Shown here in pieces: positions 1,226 to 7,682 of a DNA stretch of 64,000 nucleotides. How positions within the stretch are numbered: the stretch's first letter is position 1; each line of letters begins with the position of its first letter. A program made the position numbers and the translations under genes. Under the pieces are notes generated by a model. The model ran no database searches. It worked only from the letters and a program-made list of their open reading frames with translations, and was not told where the DNA came from. The DNA comes from Fibrobacteria bacterium (GTDB lineage: Bacteria; Fibrobacterota; Fibrobacteria; UBA11236): NCBI GenBank assembly GCA_043745805.1, contig JAYTSD010000045.1, positions 134,081-198,080 on the forward strand, read 5' to 3'.

Positions 1226-2602
1226 TTAACTCTCTTCGTGAAAATCAATTTTTGCATCCGCATGCACACTGAAACTTCCCTGTCCATTGATTACGATATG
1301 TAAACCAATTTTTTGTGTTTCTAATTTTGCTTTTAAACGATATAAGCGAATTTCAAAATTTGGTTTCTTTTGTCCGGCTAAAAGATTTTGATCTTTTTTG
1401 AAACTGCGATATTCAAATTCCTTTTTGCCTTTGTGAATCAATTCAATTAAAATATTGCGTAGTATTTTTGCAGAAACCGTTTTTAAAAAAATTTTTCCAT
1501 TTAAAATGAGTTGTACTTCTTGAGGTCGATAAATAAAAACAATATTCGCTTCAAGCTGACTAATTAAATTTTGATGCTTGCGCATTAATGCTCCAGCAAA
1601 AATCTTTTCATGTTGTGCCGCATCTTCGACTAAGTGCTTGAGAAATAGGCCATTTTTTAACTGGACTTTTTGATGCTTAACACAAGTCATGTATATAGGA
1701 GCGCTGTATACACACTGGGCGTGGAGCAATATGCGCTGGCGTAAGGGGCAGAAAAAATCCTTTTCCATAAGGATTACTTGCGCTGCGGGAATTTTATATT
1801 TCGCTAAGCTTAACTCATGGCTTTTTAAAAAATCAGTGAAGGCTATTTTGTGACCGTAACATTCACCGTTTATCCATAATTGTTGACCTTTAACGCGTAC
1901 GGAATGATCGGGTAAAATATTATTTATAGAACGAATATCAGATAAATATTGCAACTGTGCAAAAGGCGCCAAGCCTAAAATTTTGGGAGCTTTTAAAATT
2001 TGGGGGCCGACTACAAAATCAAAATTAAAATTAAAGGCATGGGTAAAGGTTTTGTCGGGAATATAAACTAAATAGGATTGTACTGATTTTTTTCCCTCCA
2101 CCTTTTTTACGCGGCGATGAATATGCCCTGGCAAATATTTTTCCGTACACACCGAAATCAAATCAAAAACCATATCATGTGTATCCGTGGCATTGAAGGC
2201 CTTTTGCATCAAGGGATAAAACCAAGCTAAAATTTCTTTACCAGGAAAATAGGTAGCGGCATTATTTCGATAAAGCAGTTTTTCTATGAATTTATTTGGA
2301 GAAACCCCCTTGCTGATTAAAAAAGGTTCCAAATCATTGACCACATAATAATTCCATCGCAATGGAATTTTTCCTTCACAGTGCCAAAGAAAATGCAGCA
2401 GCTCGGCGCCAATCAATATTTTATCGGGATAAACAATAGGGTGTGCTTCCCAAAACTCTAAAATCCATTCCCGTGGAAATAATTGCAACATAGTCACATA
2501 CGAGGCGCGGTGAAAATCGTGAATGGTTAAGGGATCCTGCATGAGATAGCGGGTTTGTTCAAGGGGCGCTTCGTTATCTATCAGCAGTGCTTCTTTGATC
2601 AT
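1226..2602 (-). CDS. putative transcriptional regulator: uncharacterised N-terminal domain plus C-terminal winged-helix-like domain (paralogue of 2617-3969)
   Basis: 458-aa ORF with GGAAAG RBS-like element. C-terminal KILRNIL..EFEY..NFEIRLYRLKAKLE..GQGSF pattern resembles an OmpR/PhoB-like wHTH. Collinear similarity to the neighbour (WFYPLM, FNFDFV, CPLR.RI.L). Confidence 0.6.
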   Translation of the reverse strand: MIKEALLIDNEAPLEQTRYLMQDPLTIHDFHRASYVTMLQLFPREWILEFWEAHPIVYPDKILIGAELLHFLWHCEGKIPLRWNYYVVNDLEPFLISKGVSPNKFIEKLLYRNNAATYFPGKEILAWFYPLMQKAFNATDTHDMVFDLISVCTEKYLPGHIHRRVKKVEGKKSVQSYLVYIPDKTFTHAFNFNFDFVVGPQILKAPKILGLAPFAQLQYLSDIRSINNILPDHSVRVKGQQLWINGECYGHKIAFTDFLKSHELSLAKYKIPAAQVILMEKDFFCPLRQRILLHAQCVYSAPIYMTCVKHQKVQLKNGLFLKHLVEDAAQHEKIFAGALMRKHQNLISQLEANIVFIYRPQEVQLILNGKIFLKTVSAKILRNILIELIHKGKKEFEYRSFKKDQNLLAGQKKPNFEIRLYRLKAKLETQKIGLHIVINGQGSFSVHADAKIDFHEES

Positions 2603-2616
2603 AGGAGTTGCTTTCC

Positions 2617-3969
2617 TTAACCTATTTCGCGGAAATCGATTTTCCGATCACAGATTAAAGTAAAAGTTCCGCGTCCATTTTTCACTATACTTAGGCCTAA
2701 TTTTTCTTGGTCGAGTTTTTCCATTAGGCGATAAAAACGGATTTCAAAATTGGAATTTTTTTGGTGGTTGGATATTTCAAAATCGGCTTTGAACTCTTTA
2801 TACTCAAATTCAGTTTTACCCTCGCGAGTATAGGCGAGAAGAATATCCTTTAAAATTTTGGCGGGGGTATTTTTTACAAAATGTTTTCCATTGAGGGATA
2901 AACTTTGATCTTGAGCATGATAGAACGCACGTATTTTATTTTCTAATTGCTTTACTAATTCCCCATGTTTTTTTTCCAATTCACTTTTGGAAAAGGATTT
3001 TTCTAAATCGGCATCTTCAACCAAATGTTGTAAGAAACTGATTTTTTTCTTTTGCAACTTATGATGTTGCATGCAAATCATGTATAGCGGCGCACCATAA
3101 GCGCAATTGGCATAGAGGACAATGCGTTTGCGGAGTGGACAATAATAATCTTTGTGCAAATGAAATACTTCGGCATCGGGCGCATCAATTTTGCCTAAAT
3201 CAATATCCAATTTTTTCAATAAAGCATAAAAAGTGGTTTTTTTGCCAATCCAATCCCCTTCGACATAGCAATCCGAGCCTTTATATTCGGCCTTTCCGGT
3301 CCATAGTACATCGTCTACGGTGCGTGTATCGCAAATATATTCAACGTTATTAAAAGCAGGCAAAGAAAGAATCTTGGAACTGGATTTGAATTGTTCTCCG
3401 GCCACAAAATCGAAATTAAATTTTACCATATTGCTAAAATTTTTATCGCTACAATAAACCAAATAAGAATGTACCACATTTTCTTTTTCAACTTTTTTGA
3501 CACGGCGACTTATATGTTGCGGTAATAATTTCGAGGTAAAAATATCAATCAGTTTATAAGCCATATCCCAAATATCATAGGCATTAAATACTTTGCCCAT
3601 AAGCGGATAAAACCAAGACAGTATAGTTATACCTGGGATATACGTAGCTTGATTGTTACGGAAGAGAATTTTTTTAATGAAGCTATTTCCGTAAATACCT
3701 TTGGAAATTAAAAAGGGTTCAATAGCGTCACCCGTGGTATAATCCCAAGTGACAGGGACTTTATTATTCGCTTGCCATAAATGCTTAACTAATTCATCAT
3801 CCGCAATGAGGTGTGTGCCCTCTTGAATAGGATATGCAGACCAAAACTCTTCCAGCCAATCCAATGGAAACTCAGCCAGCATGGTAAGATAAACGGAGCG
3901 TTGAAAATCATTAGTGGTTTTTAGCTTTTTATAAGCATTAGTCCATTTATTAATGAGCTGTTGTCCCAA
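2617..3969 (-). CDS. putative transcriptional regulator: uncharacterised N-terminal domain plus C-terminal winged-helix-like domain
   Basis: 450-aa ORF, TTG start with AGAGG RBS. Tail KILKDILLAYTREGKTEFEYKE..NFEIRFYRLMEKL..KNGRGTFTL. Confidence 0.6.
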   Translation of the reverse strand: MGQQLINKWTNAYKKLKTTNDFQRSVYLTMLAEFPLDWLEEFWSAYPIQEGTHLIADDELVKHLWQANNKVPVTWDYTTGDAIEPFLISKGIYGNSFIKKILFRNNQATYIPGITILSWFYPLMGKVFNAYDIWDMAYKLIDIFTSKLLPQHISRRVKKVEKENVVHSYLVYCSDKNFSNMVKFNFDFVAGEQFKSSSKILSLPAFNNVEYICDTRTVDDVLWTGKAEYKGSDCYVEGDWIGKKTTFYALLKKLDIDLGKIDAPDAEVFHLHKDYYCPLRKRIVLYANCAYGAPLYMICMQHHKLQKKKISFLQHLVEDADLEKSFSKSELEKKHGELVKQLENKIRAFYHAQDQSLSLNGKHFVKNTPAKILKDILLAYTREGKTEFEYKEFKADFEISNHQKNSNFEIRFYRLMEKLDQEKLGLSIVKNGRGTFTLICDRKIDFREIG

Positions 3970-4095
3970 TGTAGCCTCTTTAAACGATTCAAATGCCTTG
4001 TCAAATCTGCATTTTTTTAAAGCGGCTTAAACCCTAAATTCGGAGAAAAATAGGGTAAGAGAAAGTAAAATTAAGGTTTTTTAAGTTTTGTAAAT

Positions 4096-4761
4096 TTAAA
4101 ACTTGGCGAAGTAAATTAAGCCTAAAACCAAATTCAAATACTCTTCACTTTTGTTTTCTAAGTCCAATGGCTTATTAATGAATTCATAAAAACGGTTGTG
4201 ACGCAAGCTTTTATACAATAAATTGCTATCGTCATCGGGATTGCCGGTGATTAAAATGAATTTCAAATAAGGTTTGGTTTTATGCACTTCATCGCAAAGT
4301 TCATTACCTCCCATAAGAGGCATAACTTCATCGGTTATGACTAAAGCGACATCGGAATTAGTTCTTATAAATTCCAAGGCTTCCAATGGTTTAGTAAAAG
4401 TTTTGAGAGTTATTTTTTTGCCTAATTTGCGATTGAAAACAAAAAGATTGTCTTCTTCATCGTCGACATAAACTACGAGAGGGTTTTTATTAGTGGTAAC
4501 AAAAAGTTTTTCCAAGTGCTCCAATAGTTTTGCAACGGTAAGATAGGGAAACTCGGTTGGGTTTAAATAATTTTCCAGGTTTAAACGTTTTCCCTCATAT
4601 CGTTTTTCCAATTCATCTTTAATTTCAGAAAAGGCAACTTGATCCACACCAATATCTTCTAGAAAAACTTTATTCGTTTCGCATTCCAACAATGCGGGTA
4701 GTGTTGCGCCATTGTTTTTAAAAACATCATTTAATATTTCATATACTTCTTGTTTTGCCAT
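4096..4761 (-). CDS. ACP-like domain fused to a response-regulator receiver (REC) domain
   Basis: N-terminal about 85 aa have an ACP pattern (FLEDIGVDQV..EIKDELEKRY..TVAKLLEHL). REC motifs YVDDEE, ITDEVMP, ITG and INKP are intact. ATG at 4761 preferred over TTG at 4773. Confidence 0.75.
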   Translation of the reverse strand: MAKQEVYEILNDVFKNNGATLPALLECETNKVFLEDIGVDQVAFSEIKDELEKRYEGKRLNLENYLNPTEFPYLTVAKLLEHLEKLFVTTNKNPLVVYVDDEEDNLFVFNRKLGKKITLKTFTKPLEALEFIRTNSDVALVITDEVMPLMGGNELCDEVHKTKPYLKFILITGNPDDDSNLLYKSLRHNRFYEFINKPLDLENKSEEYLNLVLGLIYFAKF

Positions 4762-4804
4762 GAGAACCCTCAATTATTGTATGCCATCAAAATTAAACCA
4801 CAAT

Positions 4805-5980
4805 TTAAATCATTAAACTTTCAATTTTTAATTCCTTAATAGCTTCTGCGGTAACGATAGCCGTTTTTATAATAGCTTCACGAGTAATTTCGGCGTGAAC
4901 TGAAAAACGAGCAAAACTTTTATCACGCGCTGAAGCTGGAGGAGCAAATACTGAAAATAAAATTCCTTTTTCTTTCATTTTTCCATAAAGGGCGCTAGCT
5001 GTATAGGGGCCTTTAAAAAATACGGATACGATTTGACAATTACTTGGACCAGTGGGAATACCACGTTGATTCAACTCATCCCTTAAAAGTTGAGCCATAT
5101 CCATGCAATGCTGCGCTCTTTGCGGTTCCCGTAAAATAACATTCAAAGCGGCTCTGTGACCCGCAGAGTTTGGTTCAGAAGGTGAAGAACTAAAAATAAT
5201 AGAGTGACAACGAAATCTTAAAAAACGAATGGCTTGTAGGCTTGCTGCGATAAAGCCTCCATTGCCGCCAATAGCTTTGGACAAGCTAACCGTTCGAAAA
5301 GGTACTCTATCTTGTAACCCTAATGAAACGGCTAAACCACCGCCATTTTCTCCAATCATTCCAAAGCTATGGGCTTCATCTAGTACCAAGGCGCAGTTAT
5401 ACTTTTCACATAAAGCAATGTAGGTGGGAAGATCAGCAACTGATCCATCAGTGCTATAATAAGCATCGATGCAAACAATTCCCGTTCCATCTTTTTTGAT
5501 TCTTTTTTCCAAATATTCCGGATCATTATGTTTGATTAAAACAGGTCTTCCTGAAGAAAGTTTCGCACCGGACCATAATGACGCATGCGCTTGATGATCA
5601 ATGTAAATAGGCAAATCAGGTGTAGCTATTGCTTCTAATAAACCGACATTAGCGCACCAACCAGCAGTAGTTACGATTACGTCTTCGCTTTTGAGGCTTT
5701 TTTTTAATACTTCCCCAAATTTTCCATGTTCACCGGTGTCGGCTCCAAAAACCAATGAGGCTACGCTACCTGTGCCAATATTGTTATTCGCTTCATCCTT
5801 GGCTGCTATTACCTCGGGATGGCGAGACAAGCGCAAATAATCATTTTGATGTAATTCAATATAGGCTTTTGAATCTCCAGGTTGATCGAATGGATTCGGT
5901 TGATGGCCATCCATAAAATTCAACCAGTCCTCATAATGTTTGGTTAACCATGGCGTTGTATCTAAATCATCGGAAAGCAT
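4805..5980 (-). CDS. cqsA: PLP-dependent alpha-oxoamine synthase, CqsA/LqsA-like (alpha-hydroxyketone autoinducer synthase)
   Basis: QNDYLRL, AGWCANVGLL, YIDHQAHASLWSG, KHND, DAYYST, DEAHS and SLSKA (PLP Lys). The GWxANVGLL and AHxSLWxG signatures are CqsA/LqsA-like rather than BioF-like (NHASLIDG). Confidence 0.75.
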   Translation of the reverse strand: MLSDDLDTTPWLTKHYEDWLNFMDGHQPNPFDQPGDSKAYIELHQNDYLRLSRHPEVIAAKDEANNNIGTGSVASLVFGADTGEHGKFGEVLKKSLKSEDVIVTTAGWCANVGLLEAIATPDLPIYIDHQAHASLWSGAKLSSGRPVLIKHNDPEYLEKRIKKDGTGIVCIDAYYSTDGSVADLPTYIALCEKYNCALVLDEAHSFGMIGENGGGLAVSLGLQDRVPFRTVSLSKAIGGNGGFIAASLQAIRFLRFRCHSIIFSSSPSEPNSAGHRAALNVILREPQRAQHCMDMAQLLRDELNQRGIPTGPSNCQIVSVFFKGPYTASALYGKMKEKGILFSVFAPPASARDKSFARFSVHAEITREAIIKTAIVTAEAIKELKIESLMI

Positions 5981-6122
5981 GGAACGGTCCTTTTATTATC
6001 TGTATAAATGGTTTGGATTTTGTGGTTTTTTGTGTATGTGAATGAATGTCTTGCTCAAATATGCTTCCGGGCCTTAATATTGCATTTGAAGCTAGAATTT
6101 TTGGCTTTTGAGGAAAAGGTTG

Positions 6123-7682
6123 ATGCTGAGAAAATTCTTTTCGAAGGATTTTTGGAATGGCCGTTCGGAATACCACCGAATGCTTTTTAATACTGACTAT
6201 TCCTTTCAAAAACGTTTTATGATGGTACTGGTATATATAGGCGCACCAGCCAATATATTTTTTCATTACTATGAACAAGATCAAGGTTATCAAGATTCTA
6301 CCATTGGACGTTATGCTATTTCTCTGCTATTAGTTACACTAGTTTTCCTACCGAAGATTATCAAGCAAAATAAATGGCAAATATCGTACTGGGAACTCAC
6401 ACTTTTCATTTTTTTCCCATGTATGAACACCGCCTTCATGCTGATGAATCATGTTAATCAGTATTGGTTTTCCACCTTTATTCTGGATATGGTATTTTTG
6501 GGCATTTTTACCAAATGGTATATGATCCCTTTCCATTACATTTTTGGTAGTGCGGCAATAACATGGTGGTACTTTCACAATACAGGATATGATGCGAAAT
6601 TATTTCAGGCCAATTTAAATGCGCATGTGGCAGCCTTTCTAGGAACATGCGTTGCATCGGGAGTCGTTTTAACTATTGAATATGTTAATAAAAAATCTAC
6701 TGAAGCTAAATTAGCGCTATCTAAAGCGGAACATGATAGGCTCAGAACCTTAGAGCTACAAAAATCAAATGAAGAATTAAAAAAACGTGAGGAAATCATT
6801 AAGGTGTATGTGCGCCCATCCTTGTATGAAGAGTTAGCGGCGGGACATGACCCTCTCAAATTTCAACCTATTATGCTGCCTAAGGCGATTATGTTTTGCG
6901 ACATTCGCGACTTCACTTATTTGACGGAAATTCTTACCCCTTACGAAAAACAAACTTTTCTCAATCAATATTTCACTTTGATGAATCATGCCATTGTCAA
7001 TAATGAAGGCGAAGTAGATAAAATTGTGGGCGATTGTATTATGGGTCTTTTTCCTAATGGCCGCGCAGCCGTACATGCCGCATTGGCCATGCGTAAGGCC
7101 TTGCACACATTTAATAATATGATGTACAACAGTGGTCGTCGAAAAATCCCTAATGGTATTGGCATAGCCAAGGGCGAAGTGATGTTAGGCAATTTCGGAT
7201 CTAATGAAAAACTAGATCGCACGGTGATTGGTGAAGCGGTGAATATAGCTTCACGCTTGGAATCTAAAACCAAAATGTATGGTGTGGAAATTGTGGTGAC
7301 TCAGGATGTGGTCGATGAAATGCAGGGCTATCCCTATATGCGTTGGATTGACAATGCTAAGGTAAAAGGTTCGAGCCGACCTTTGCAGCTTTATGAAATT
7401 TATGGACATCAACCAGATGAAGTGATTGCCTATAAAGAAAAGACTAAAGTCATATTCGAAAAGGCTTTGACTATTTATTTCAATAAAGGTTTTAAAGATG
7501 CTTTACGCATGTTTCAATCTATGTTATCCGAGGTTCCACCGCATAAATACAAAGCGAATGCACCCATGGATAATATTCTCAGCTATTATATTGAGCATTG
7601 CCGAACTTGGGTGAATGACTCCGCAGGGGCTTGGGACTTGCGGAATAAATGGGATGGCATTCATGAGTTTAAAGAAAAGTGA
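6123..7682 (+). CDS. membrane class III adenylate cyclase with an N-terminal CqsS/LqsS-like multi-TM sensor domain
   Basis: About 6 hydrophobic segments including P..TAFMLMN-x5-W; coiled-coil linker; cyclase motifs MFCDIRDFT, VDKIVGD and DRTVIGEAVNIASRLE. ATG at 6123 follows GAGG/AAGG. Confidence 0.85.
   Translation: MLRKFFSKDFWNGRSEYHRMLFNTDYSFQKRFMMVLVYIGAPANIFFHYYEQDQGYQDSTIGRYAISLLLVTLVFLPKIIKQNKWQISYWELTLFIFFPCMNTAFMLMNHVNQYWFSTFILDMVFLGIFTKWYMIPFHYIFGSAAITWWYFHNTGYDAKLFQANLNAHVAAFLGTCVASGVVLTIEYVNKKSTEAKLALSKAEHDRLRTLELQKSNEELKKREEIIKVYVRPSLYEELAAGHDPLKFQPIMLPKAIMFCDIRDFTYLTEILTPYEKQTFLNQYFTLMNHAIVNNEGEVDKIVGDCIMGLFPNGRAAVHAALAMRKALHTFNNMMYNSGRRKIPNGIGIAKGEVMLGNFGSNEKLDRTVIGEAVNIASRLESKTKMYGVEIVVTQDVVDEMQGYPYMRWIDNAKVKGSSRPLQLYEIYGHQPDEVIAYKEKTKVIFEKALTIYFNKGFKDALRMFQSMLSEVPPHKYKANAPMDNILSYYIEHCRTWVNDSAGAWDLRNKWDGIHEFKEK

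Follow-up and report, generated by a model that had tools for sequence, protein, structure and literature searches.

What does the six-helix membrane domain of a class III adenylate cyclase respond to? The function of these domains, debated for decades, is named a blind spot in a 2025 review (PMC12414865), and the ligands of natural six-transmembrane (6TM) cyclase anchors are described as not predictable in a 2016 chimera study (PMC4821796). The question is raised anew by two divergent genes in a 64,000-nucleotide stretch of a Fibrobacteria genome, here called the window (positions 134081-198080 of contig C45, JAYTSD010000045.1). One gene, P0001, encodes an alpha-oxoamine synthase (AOS) related to the autoinducer synthase CqsA, and the other, P0002, encodes a class III cyclase with a membrane domain related to the sensor domains of the kinases CqsS and LqsS. 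We give slightly better than even odds (a probability of about 0.55) to the reading that a lipid-like amino- or hydroxy-ketone, made by the cell itself, acts as the signal that the cyclase detects and converts to a cyclic AMP (cAMP) output.

The genome, from a sediment bacterium, is 3.9 Mb in size and 99% complete, and the contig is 198 kb long. Four sequencing runs are listed for this DNA, all of them DNA runs from one sediment study, and no RNA run is among them. An open reading frame (ORF) scan with translations recovered, at the same coordinates, the five genes that an earlier, sequence-only reading of this DNA had delineated. That reading had placed a pyridoxal phosphate (PLP) enzyme head to head with a class III cyclase at a distance of about 140 bp; both genes are intact and 142 bp apart. 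The ORF of P0002 is listed from a TTG at 6108, but translation more probably begins with the ATG at 6123, and the database copy of the protein has 519 aa; with the ATG as start, 142 bp separate the divergent starts of P0001 and P0002. The features on which the argument turns are the following:

4805-5980, minus strand: P0001, PLP-dependent AOS of a CqsA-like sister clade, putative signal or lipid synthase
5981-6122, no strand: divergent intergenic region between synthase and cyclase, 142 bp
6123-7682, plus strand: P0002, predicted 6TM CqsS/LqsS-type sensor, coiled-coil linker, class III adenylate cyclase domain and conserved tail of ~90 aa
6213-6683, plus strand: membrane sensor domain of P0002, residues ~36-192, six predicted helices
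6873-7412, plus strand: catalytic domain of P0002, residues ~256-435, PF00211

The membrane domain of the cyclase

P0002 matches PF00211 in Pfam (E 4e-15, 56 bits), and its catalytic domain is class IIIb-like, with OaPAC, bPAC and CyaB as closest relatives (E 7e-32 to 3e-21). In the alignment with the active enzyme OaPAC (5x4t, E 7e-32), which begins in the helical segment before the domain, the two metal Asp positions and the Lys, Thr, Asn and Arg positions are identical. We take the Asp pair to bind metal, the Lys to specify adenine and the Asn and Arg to serve the transition state. Judged by this alignment, P0002 is a class III adenylate cyclase with all of its catalytic residues. The C-terminal tail of ~90 aa is kept across the family.

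For residues 1-215 of P0002, neither Pfam nor NCBIfam has a matching model, and an ESM Atlas feature search with the N-terminal domain returned generic MASE-type membrane domains only. A hydropathy scan finds three segments in P0002 and five to six in its relatives; we infer six N-terminal helices from a reading of the sequence and from its collinear alignment to 6TM kinases. These kinases came from 11 curated CqsA loci, in seven of which CqsA lies beside a receiver-domain (REC) protein of ~340 aa and a multi-transmembrane (TM) kinase of 430-490 aa. This is the lqs-type layout as defined in a 2012 review of Lqs/Cqs systems (PMC3376566). Four of the kinases and three of the REC proteins were checked against Pfam, and all of them matched, the kinases as HisKA/HATPase_c proteins and the REC proteins as Response_reg proteins.

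A single-sequence search with the P0002 N terminus matched three of these CqsA-adjacent kinases, collinearly over the TM region. When 124 cyclase N termini were aligned as a profile with the TM domains of all seven kinases in hhalign, the match had Prob 99.2 and E 2.2e-19 over 148 columns, with two reversed and eight column-shuffled controls giving E values of 0.13-0.52. A repeat with smaller alignments gave Prob 99.1 and E 6.6e-19 over 153 columns. Cyclase and kinase sensors share motifs in the loop after helix 1 and in a P...T...L.N..N..W..S stretch across helices 3-4. Because of the profile-profile match and its controls, the CqsS-type sensor proposed in the sequence-only reading rests on homology and not only on topology: by profile comparison, the membrane domain of P0002 is homologous to the CqsS/LqsS-type sensor domain. 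The output domain is PF00211 and not the HisKA and HATPase_c pair of the reference kinases. Separately, kinases near CqsA-like genes in loci L059 and L061 were considered as CqsS-like and rejected, as they have one to three hydrophobic segments and no match from the cyclase N terminus.

Within the cyclase family the membrane domain changes fastest. The cyclases of L053 and L155 are 26% identical in the membrane domain, 76% in the catalytic domain and 80% in the tail, and a second pair is 56% identical in the TM domain and 88% in the catalytic domain. Such divergence fits a diversifying receptor and also fits a loosely constrained anchor. In the latter case the cyclase would be constitutive, or regulated by its tail only, and its likeness to CqsS would be a relic. 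The TM domain is indeed the least conserved part of P0002, and its helices are weakly hydrophobic in a simple scan. However, the motifs in common with kinase sensors persist across phyla over 148-153 columns, which would not be expected of a mere anchor, and we regard a plain anchor as highly improbable.

Fusions of this kind have been built. A CqsS-AC2 chimeric cyclase was reportedly engineered by Seth et al. Like P0002, the engineered CqsS-Rv1625c and CqsS-AC2 proteins consist of a CqsS-type 6TM receptor, a helical linker and a class III cyclase. The CqsS-Rv1625c fusion is regulated by CAI-1 (Beltz et al, 2016; PMC4821796), so the wiring of CqsS to a cyclase can work. The 2025 review calls such chimeras synthetic proof-of-concept cyclases (PMC12414865). 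In contrast, P0002 is a natural protein whose kind is encoded by at least 28 genes within a single bacterial family, and its catalytic domain is class IIIb-like. It also resembles other 6TM class III cyclases (Rv1625c/Cya type; cluster 3 of Beltz et al) in its six-helix anchor, helical transducer and homodimeric cyclase domain, and differs from them in two ways: profile comparison places its anchor in a receptor family whose ligands are known, and a candidate ligand-making gene adjoins. A full-text literature search, with subscription journals outside its reach, found no description of a natural CqsS-type cyclase or of a CqsA-like gene paired with a cyclase, in agreement with the sequence-only reading, which knew of no described alpha-hydroxyketone system with this architecture. 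Since an anchor of a receptor family and the likely ligand enzyme are encoded 142 bp apart, the question of what cyclase anchors do becomes testable with two genes and a cya-deficient strain of Escherichia coli.

The synthase and its carrier-like partner

The translation of P0001 holds TTAGWCANVGLLEAIA and HQAHASLWSGAKL, the two signature motifs earlier noted in this PLP enzyme, and matches PF00155 in Pfam (E 1e-32). Residues K235, H132, D201 and H204 are invariant in a nine-sequence alignment and align to Vibrio cholerae CqsA (2wk8). We take K235 to be the PLP-binding lysine and H132, D201 and H204 to be its active-site His/Asp partners. The top NCBIfam model is the CqsA-type autoinducer synthase NF005526 with 289.8 bits, followed by BioF (229), serine palmitoyltransferase (SPT; 208 and 193) and Kbl (186). 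The closest solved relative is likewise CqsA 2wk8 (E 2e-50, 174.9 bits, compared with 145.5 for SPT and 134.6 for BioF), and the full ranking among PDB entries is CqsA, SPT, BioF, Kbl. The genome encodes one other member of the AOS family, which is BioF-like.

For a phylogeny, reference sequences were taken from a class-wide family search in which 11 of 400 sampled Gammaproteobacteria had a CqsA above the curated cut-off. The resulting tree has 55 rows, none of them a curated SPT or Kbl, and was computed with a quick IQ-TREE run (LG+G4) with the Shimodaira-Hasegawa-like approximate likelihood-ratio test (SH-aLRT) as its only support measure. The clade of P0001 (26 rows, SH-aLRT 100) is sister to the clade of the 11 CqsA sequences above the cut-off, with a joint SH-aLRT of 99. 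This grouping excludes the curated BioF rows and those that are BioF-like, SPT-like or PRK07505-like. The comparison with BioF and Spt that the sequence-only reading had called for therefore places P0001 with CqsA, in a tree whose SPT side consists of SPT-like rows. Because of its position in the tree, P0001 is best described as CqsA-like, a sister lineage and not CqsA proper. A search for related loci with the P0001 alignment retrieved its close subfamily only and reached no locus from Vibrio or Legionella. The curated CqsA clade of the tree also takes in the C-terminal AOS domains (~430 aa) of three ORFs of 1,200-1,300 aa (L098:5247-9152, L099:2261-5899 and L104:3130-6786), each preceded by a second AOS-like ORF.

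Immediately after the synthase gene lies a gene for a receiver protein:

4096-4773, minus strand: P0003, acyl-carrier-like domain without attachment serine (residues 1-95) and receiver (residues ~98-210)

P0003 has 225 aa and a REC domain (PF00072, E 5e-10) in which D104, D105, D148, T176 and K201 are invariant across 22 sequences, so that the phospho-acceptor residues are intact. Its AlphaFold2 model has a predicted local distance difference test score (pLDDT) of 85.4. A fold search with the whole protein placed the LqsR structure 6sy9 third among 500 matches; this search is dominated by the REC domain and silent on the N-terminal fold. The N-terminal 95 aa, searched as a profile of 19 N termini, have NodF as their best solved match (E 3.8e-4, full length), and carrier proteins make up 8 of the 19 hits, the seven besides NodF being weaker; the Pfam carrier model PF00550 reaches E 0.17 only. 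The N-terminal part of the model shows a helix pattern like that of carrier proteins. In the column of the attachment serine, the window protein has Gln and none of the 22 members has Ser. The pseudo-acyl-carrier-protein-REC gene of the sequence-only reading is thus confirmed in its lost serine and intact receiver, and its N terminus is putatively carrier-like in fold. The family has 272 database members, annotated merely as CheY-like.

With the attachment serine missing, the carrier-like domain of P0003 cannot deliver a substrate and is more likely a regulator. The arrangement resembles that of bacterial SPT or BioF enzymes with a dedicated acyl carrier protein (ACP), in that an AOS enzyme is encoded beside a small carrier-like domain, putatively of four helices; in L059 the gene string further encodes an AMP ligase and a true PP-binding protein. 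Unlike the carriers of those systems, the carrier-like domain of P0003 has no attachment serine (22 of 22) and is fused to a receiver. It differs as well from the LqsR-like proteins of ~340 aa, which have the REC domain in their N-terminal half and a C-terminal domain of their own, whereas P0003, at 225 aa, has the ACP-like domain first and the REC domain last.

We predicted the complex of two P0001 chains with the P0003 N terminus from custom alignments. The score was 0.60, compared with 0.00 for the best control, with runs agreeing in at least 65% of contacts and a partner pLDDT of at least 77. Of 157 solved complexes, 116 reach the mark applied here, as do 2 of 215 mismatches; only 18 of those solved complexes pass with a score of 0.60 or lower, the range in which both passing mismatches also lie. 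The model may, in addition, remember related carrier complexes. The prediction thus hints that P0003 may dock on P0001.

Conservation of the pairing and what it says of the ligand

Homologues were drawn from metagenome-assembled genomes (MAGs) of Fibrobacteria and Fibrobacterota. Of 296 genomes in the phylum, 27 contain a match to P0002 at E <= 1e-40 and 14 contain CqsA-like genes at E <= 1e-50. Only three families, f1 (that of the window), f13 and f17, have matches over the full length with the TM domain; in f8, f14, f16 and one f13 genome (G043) the catalytic part alone matches. Within f1, the cyclase is present in 14 of 31 genomes and the CqsA-like gene in 4 of 31.

A context map of 28 cyclase genes from f1 finds 12 head to head with an AOS gene: the window itself and L047, L049, L051, L053, L054, L110, L155, L156, L004, L015 and L011. 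The last of these is from an unpublished genome (G254), without which the count is 11 of 27. One further cyclase lies 2.2 kb from an AOS gene, and four are tandem second copies inside cassettes. A P0003-like gene follows the AOS gene in all 10 cassettes with enough flanking sequence, and a second P0003-like subtype is tail to tail with the cyclase in nine of the 10, the window being the exception. In the window genome, the second P0003-like copy (48% identity) is at C45:130059-130715 (L136:12033-12734), ~3.4 kb before the window, where it adjoins a tyrosine recombinase/integrase gene and a glycosyltransferase gene.

More distant cyclases repeat the theme with another enzyme. In f13 and f17, all four cyclase homologues are head to head with a gene for a PilZ-FeeM N-acyl amino acid synthase (PF21926), followed by a methyltransferase gene. 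The PilZ-FeeM protein is a fusion of a cyclic di-GMP-binding domain with an N-acyl amino acid synthase. These cyclase loci are:

L058:14835-16812, PilZ-FeeM-paired cyclase locus
L059:17762-19779, PilZ-FeeM-paired cyclase locus
L060:10967-12938, PilZ-FeeM-paired cyclase locus
L062:10571-12541, PilZ-FeeM-paired cyclase locus

On the same strand, L058 and L059 carry genes for an AMP ligase, a radical-SAM enzyme, a CqsA-like protein and a REC protein, to which L059 adds genes for a carrier protein and two kinases.

Several findings weigh against a circuit in which P0001 makes the ligand of P0002. P0001 scores under the curated cut-off of NF005526 (289.8 vs 428 bits) and lies beside the CqsA clade, not within it. 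The designation of a CqsA-like synthase, first made in the sequence-only reading, holds for the best model, the best solved relative and the sister clade, and falls short at the 428-bit cut-off. P0001 relatives at 47-57% identity occur outside the phylum in Myxococcota, Lysobacteraceae, a Pseudomonas, Methylococcales, Acidobacteriota and other groups, and their loci contain neither a cyclase nor a P0003-like gene; the closest relatives in other phyla (47-53% identity) have no CqsS-like gene nearby either. Their neighbours are genes for an AMP ligase, fatty-acid desaturase, sulfotransferase, DUF1254/DUF1214 proteins, short-chain dehydrogenase and APS kinase or, in an alternative set (L083, L097), a dehydrogenase and a class III aminotransferase protein of ~965 aa, and the loci look like lipid or metabolite biosynthesis. 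Because P0001 is below the cut-off and has relatives in lipid-type clusters, an alpha-hydroxyketone is no more than a candidate product.

Within the phylum, the points on this side concern the pairing itself. Eleven of the 28 f1 cyclases are orphans, with no AOS gene in the fetched flanks, and six genomes of another family have a CqsA-like gene and no match to the TM cyclase. The synthases of the 12 cassettes are CqsA-like in two, SPT-like in eight (best model NF047600, ~342 bits) and PRK07505-like in two. The cyclase tree mixes these labels, and in one example a CqsA-like-paired and an SPT-like-paired cyclase are 76% identical in the TM domain and 93% in the catalytic domain. Strict co-evolution of synthase and receptor, a candidate that we considered, is therefore not seen and was rejected. 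The conservation of the neighbourhood, which the sequence-only reading had proposed to check, stands for the recurring head-to-head pairing and does not extend to the synthase subtype or to the orphans.

Around the P0001-like gene of L081, L082, L085, L090, L092 and L093, from Gammaproteobacteria and other phyla, the conserved order is AMP ligase, fatty-acid desaturase, AOS, sulfotransferase, DUF1254/DUF1214, short-chain dehydrogenase, AMP ligase and APS kinase, which looks like a sulfated amino-lipid pathway. L070 and L072, on contigs labelled as Pseudomonadota and Polyangia MAGs, carry a Fibrobacterota-type pair of CqsA-like and ACP-like-REC genes at 54-56% identity, which may be due to mis-binning or gene transfer.

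An alternative to cell-to-cell signalling is a membrane-lipid homeostasis module, in which the AOS would make the first amino-lipid intermediate (sphingoid-like, sulfated or similar), the membrane domain of the cyclase would sense that lipid or the bilayer state, and cAMP and the ACP-like-REC protein would feed back on synthesis within the same cell. The nearest out-of-phylum relatives of P0001 are in lipid-type clusters, 8 of the 12 cassette synthases are SPT-like, and the cyclase tree is indifferent to synthase subtype. The ACP-like partner resembles the dedicated carrier proteins of bacterial SPT systems, and the predicted docking of P0003 (0.60 vs 0.00) leans the same way, if faintly. However, the cassettes contain no gene for a ketoreductase, an N-acyltransferase or another lipid-finishing enzyme, and in a housekeeping pathway one would expect neither a first enzyme that changes among three subtypes nor absence from most f1 genomes, as the counts of 14 and 4 in 31 imply. 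In addition, the kinship of the sensor domain is specifically with autoinducer receptors. We consider this explanation unlikely, and the strongest of those that compete with a sensed ketone.

The orphan cyclases, and the uncoupling of synthase subtype from cyclase phylogeny, could also mean that the two genes share regulation and nothing else. Divergent promoters are a common device of co-regulation. In such an arrangement the cyclase would sense some other cue, from the membrane or from outside, and control of the synthase would fall to the receiver protein or to cAMP, with a CRP-like factor acting at the shared spacer of 142 bp; the AOS product would not be the ligand. However, no CRP-type palindrome or other regulator site was found in the 142-bp spacer, where a sequence scan detects a single weak inverted repeat only. 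Moreover, the sensor's only detectable relatives in these data are receptors with a ligand made by the adjoining AOS enzyme, and all four distant homologues again face a synthase of lipid-signal type. Shared regulation alone is, in our estimate, less likely again than lipid homeostasis.

Regulators, the proposed circuit and its meaning

Two further genes follow P0003 on the same strand:

2617-3969, minus strand: P0004, one-component-type regulator with an N-terminal region of ~330 aa and a predicted OmpR-type winged-helix C terminus; cassette accessory
1226-2602, minus strand: P0005, paralogue of P0004, 47% identity

Neither P0004 nor P0005 has a Pfam match. The AlphaFold2 model of P0004 (pLDDT 87.6) superposes at its C terminus on the SaeR DNA-binding domain (4u88_B, 4ixa_A) with a template modelling (TM) score of 0.62-0.63, a root-mean-square deviation of 3.1-3.2 A, a probability of 1.00 and Foldseek E values of 0.03-0.06. 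On this model, P0004 ends in an OmpR-type winged helix, in keeping with the earlier description of two paralogues with winged helix-turn-helix tails. A likeness of its N-terminal two thirds to H-NOX or soluble guanylate cyclase was weak (E 0.002-0.2, TM score ~0.45 on the target) and is not relied on. The closest P0004/P0005 homologues flank the cassette in L155 and L156. The family (~450 aa) is not specific to the cassette, because it occurs in 187 of the 296 Fibrobacterota genomes; the window genome has a further member at C1:45864-47153.

The sequence-only reading saw no kinase in the locus, and the observation extends to the entire 198-kb contig, which has no histidine kinase: none of the 43 HATPase_c matches of the genome lies on it. 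In sister loci, a GAF-HATPase_c kinase of ~720 aa is encoded within a few kb of the cyclase or cassette (L047:11331-13520, L051:3699-5855, L053:2-2038, L050:682-2826 and L154:263-2407). The orthologue in the window genome, 48% identical and encoded on another contig (C27:30258-32405), is a candidate kinase for the cassette. On the 3' side of P0002 are housekeeping genes for an sthA-type transhydrogenase, a peptide deformylase and an Aas-like acyltransferase/major facilitator superfamily fusion. At the edge of the window, positions 2-922 belong to a large ORF (L136:14901-17003, 700 aa) that Pfam does not match and that has only a faint, metallo-beta-lactamase-like hit in NCBIfam (E 0.002).

In the circuit that we favour, a self-contained cassette for small-molecule signalling, P0001 would catalyse the condensation of an amino acid and a fatty acyl thioester to a lipid-like alpha-aminoketone, which may be converted onward to a hydroxyketone. 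The product would partition into the membrane or the medium and would bind the six-helix CqsS/LqsS-type domain of P0002. From there, the effect of binding, whether it raises or lowers activity, would pass through the coiled-coil linker to the class III cyclase dimer, so that cAMP would take the place of a phosphorelay as output. Its readers would be cyclic-nucleotide-binding proteins, five of which are encoded elsewhere in the genome. P0003 may dock on the synthase, and a kinase whose gene lies outside the cassette may control this docking by phosphorylation, which would give signal production a second input. A product released to the medium could make the signal a communal one.

This layout is close to that of Legionella lqsA-lqsR-lqsS and Vibrio cqsA-cqsS, where an AOS synthase adjoins a homologous six-helix sensor and the receiver protein lies between or beside them. 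It differs in its output, a class III cyclase and not HisKA/HATPase_c, and in its synthase, which belongs to a sister clade under the curated cut-off and whose subtype is interchangeable among cassettes. A broader proposal, which we advance tentatively and hold with less confidence than the sensed ketone itself, is that the Fibrobacterota possess a modular family of ligand-gated cyclases of CqsS/LqsS type, that each would receive its ligand from the synthase encoded head to head with it (one of three AOS subtypes or PilZ-FeeM), and that phosphorylated P0003 would throttle the synthase at the carrier docking site.

If this broader proposal is true, P0002 would give the natural 6TM cyclases their first identifiable ligand of a membrane domain, and the locus would encode a quorum-sensing-like circuit with a cyclic-nucleotide output. 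CqsA/CqsS-type signalling would then reach another phylum, with a second messenger at its end, and a carrier-protein mimic may represent a new control of a PLP acyltransferase. The cassette would offer a natural test case for whether the membrane anchors of cyclases are ligand receptors.

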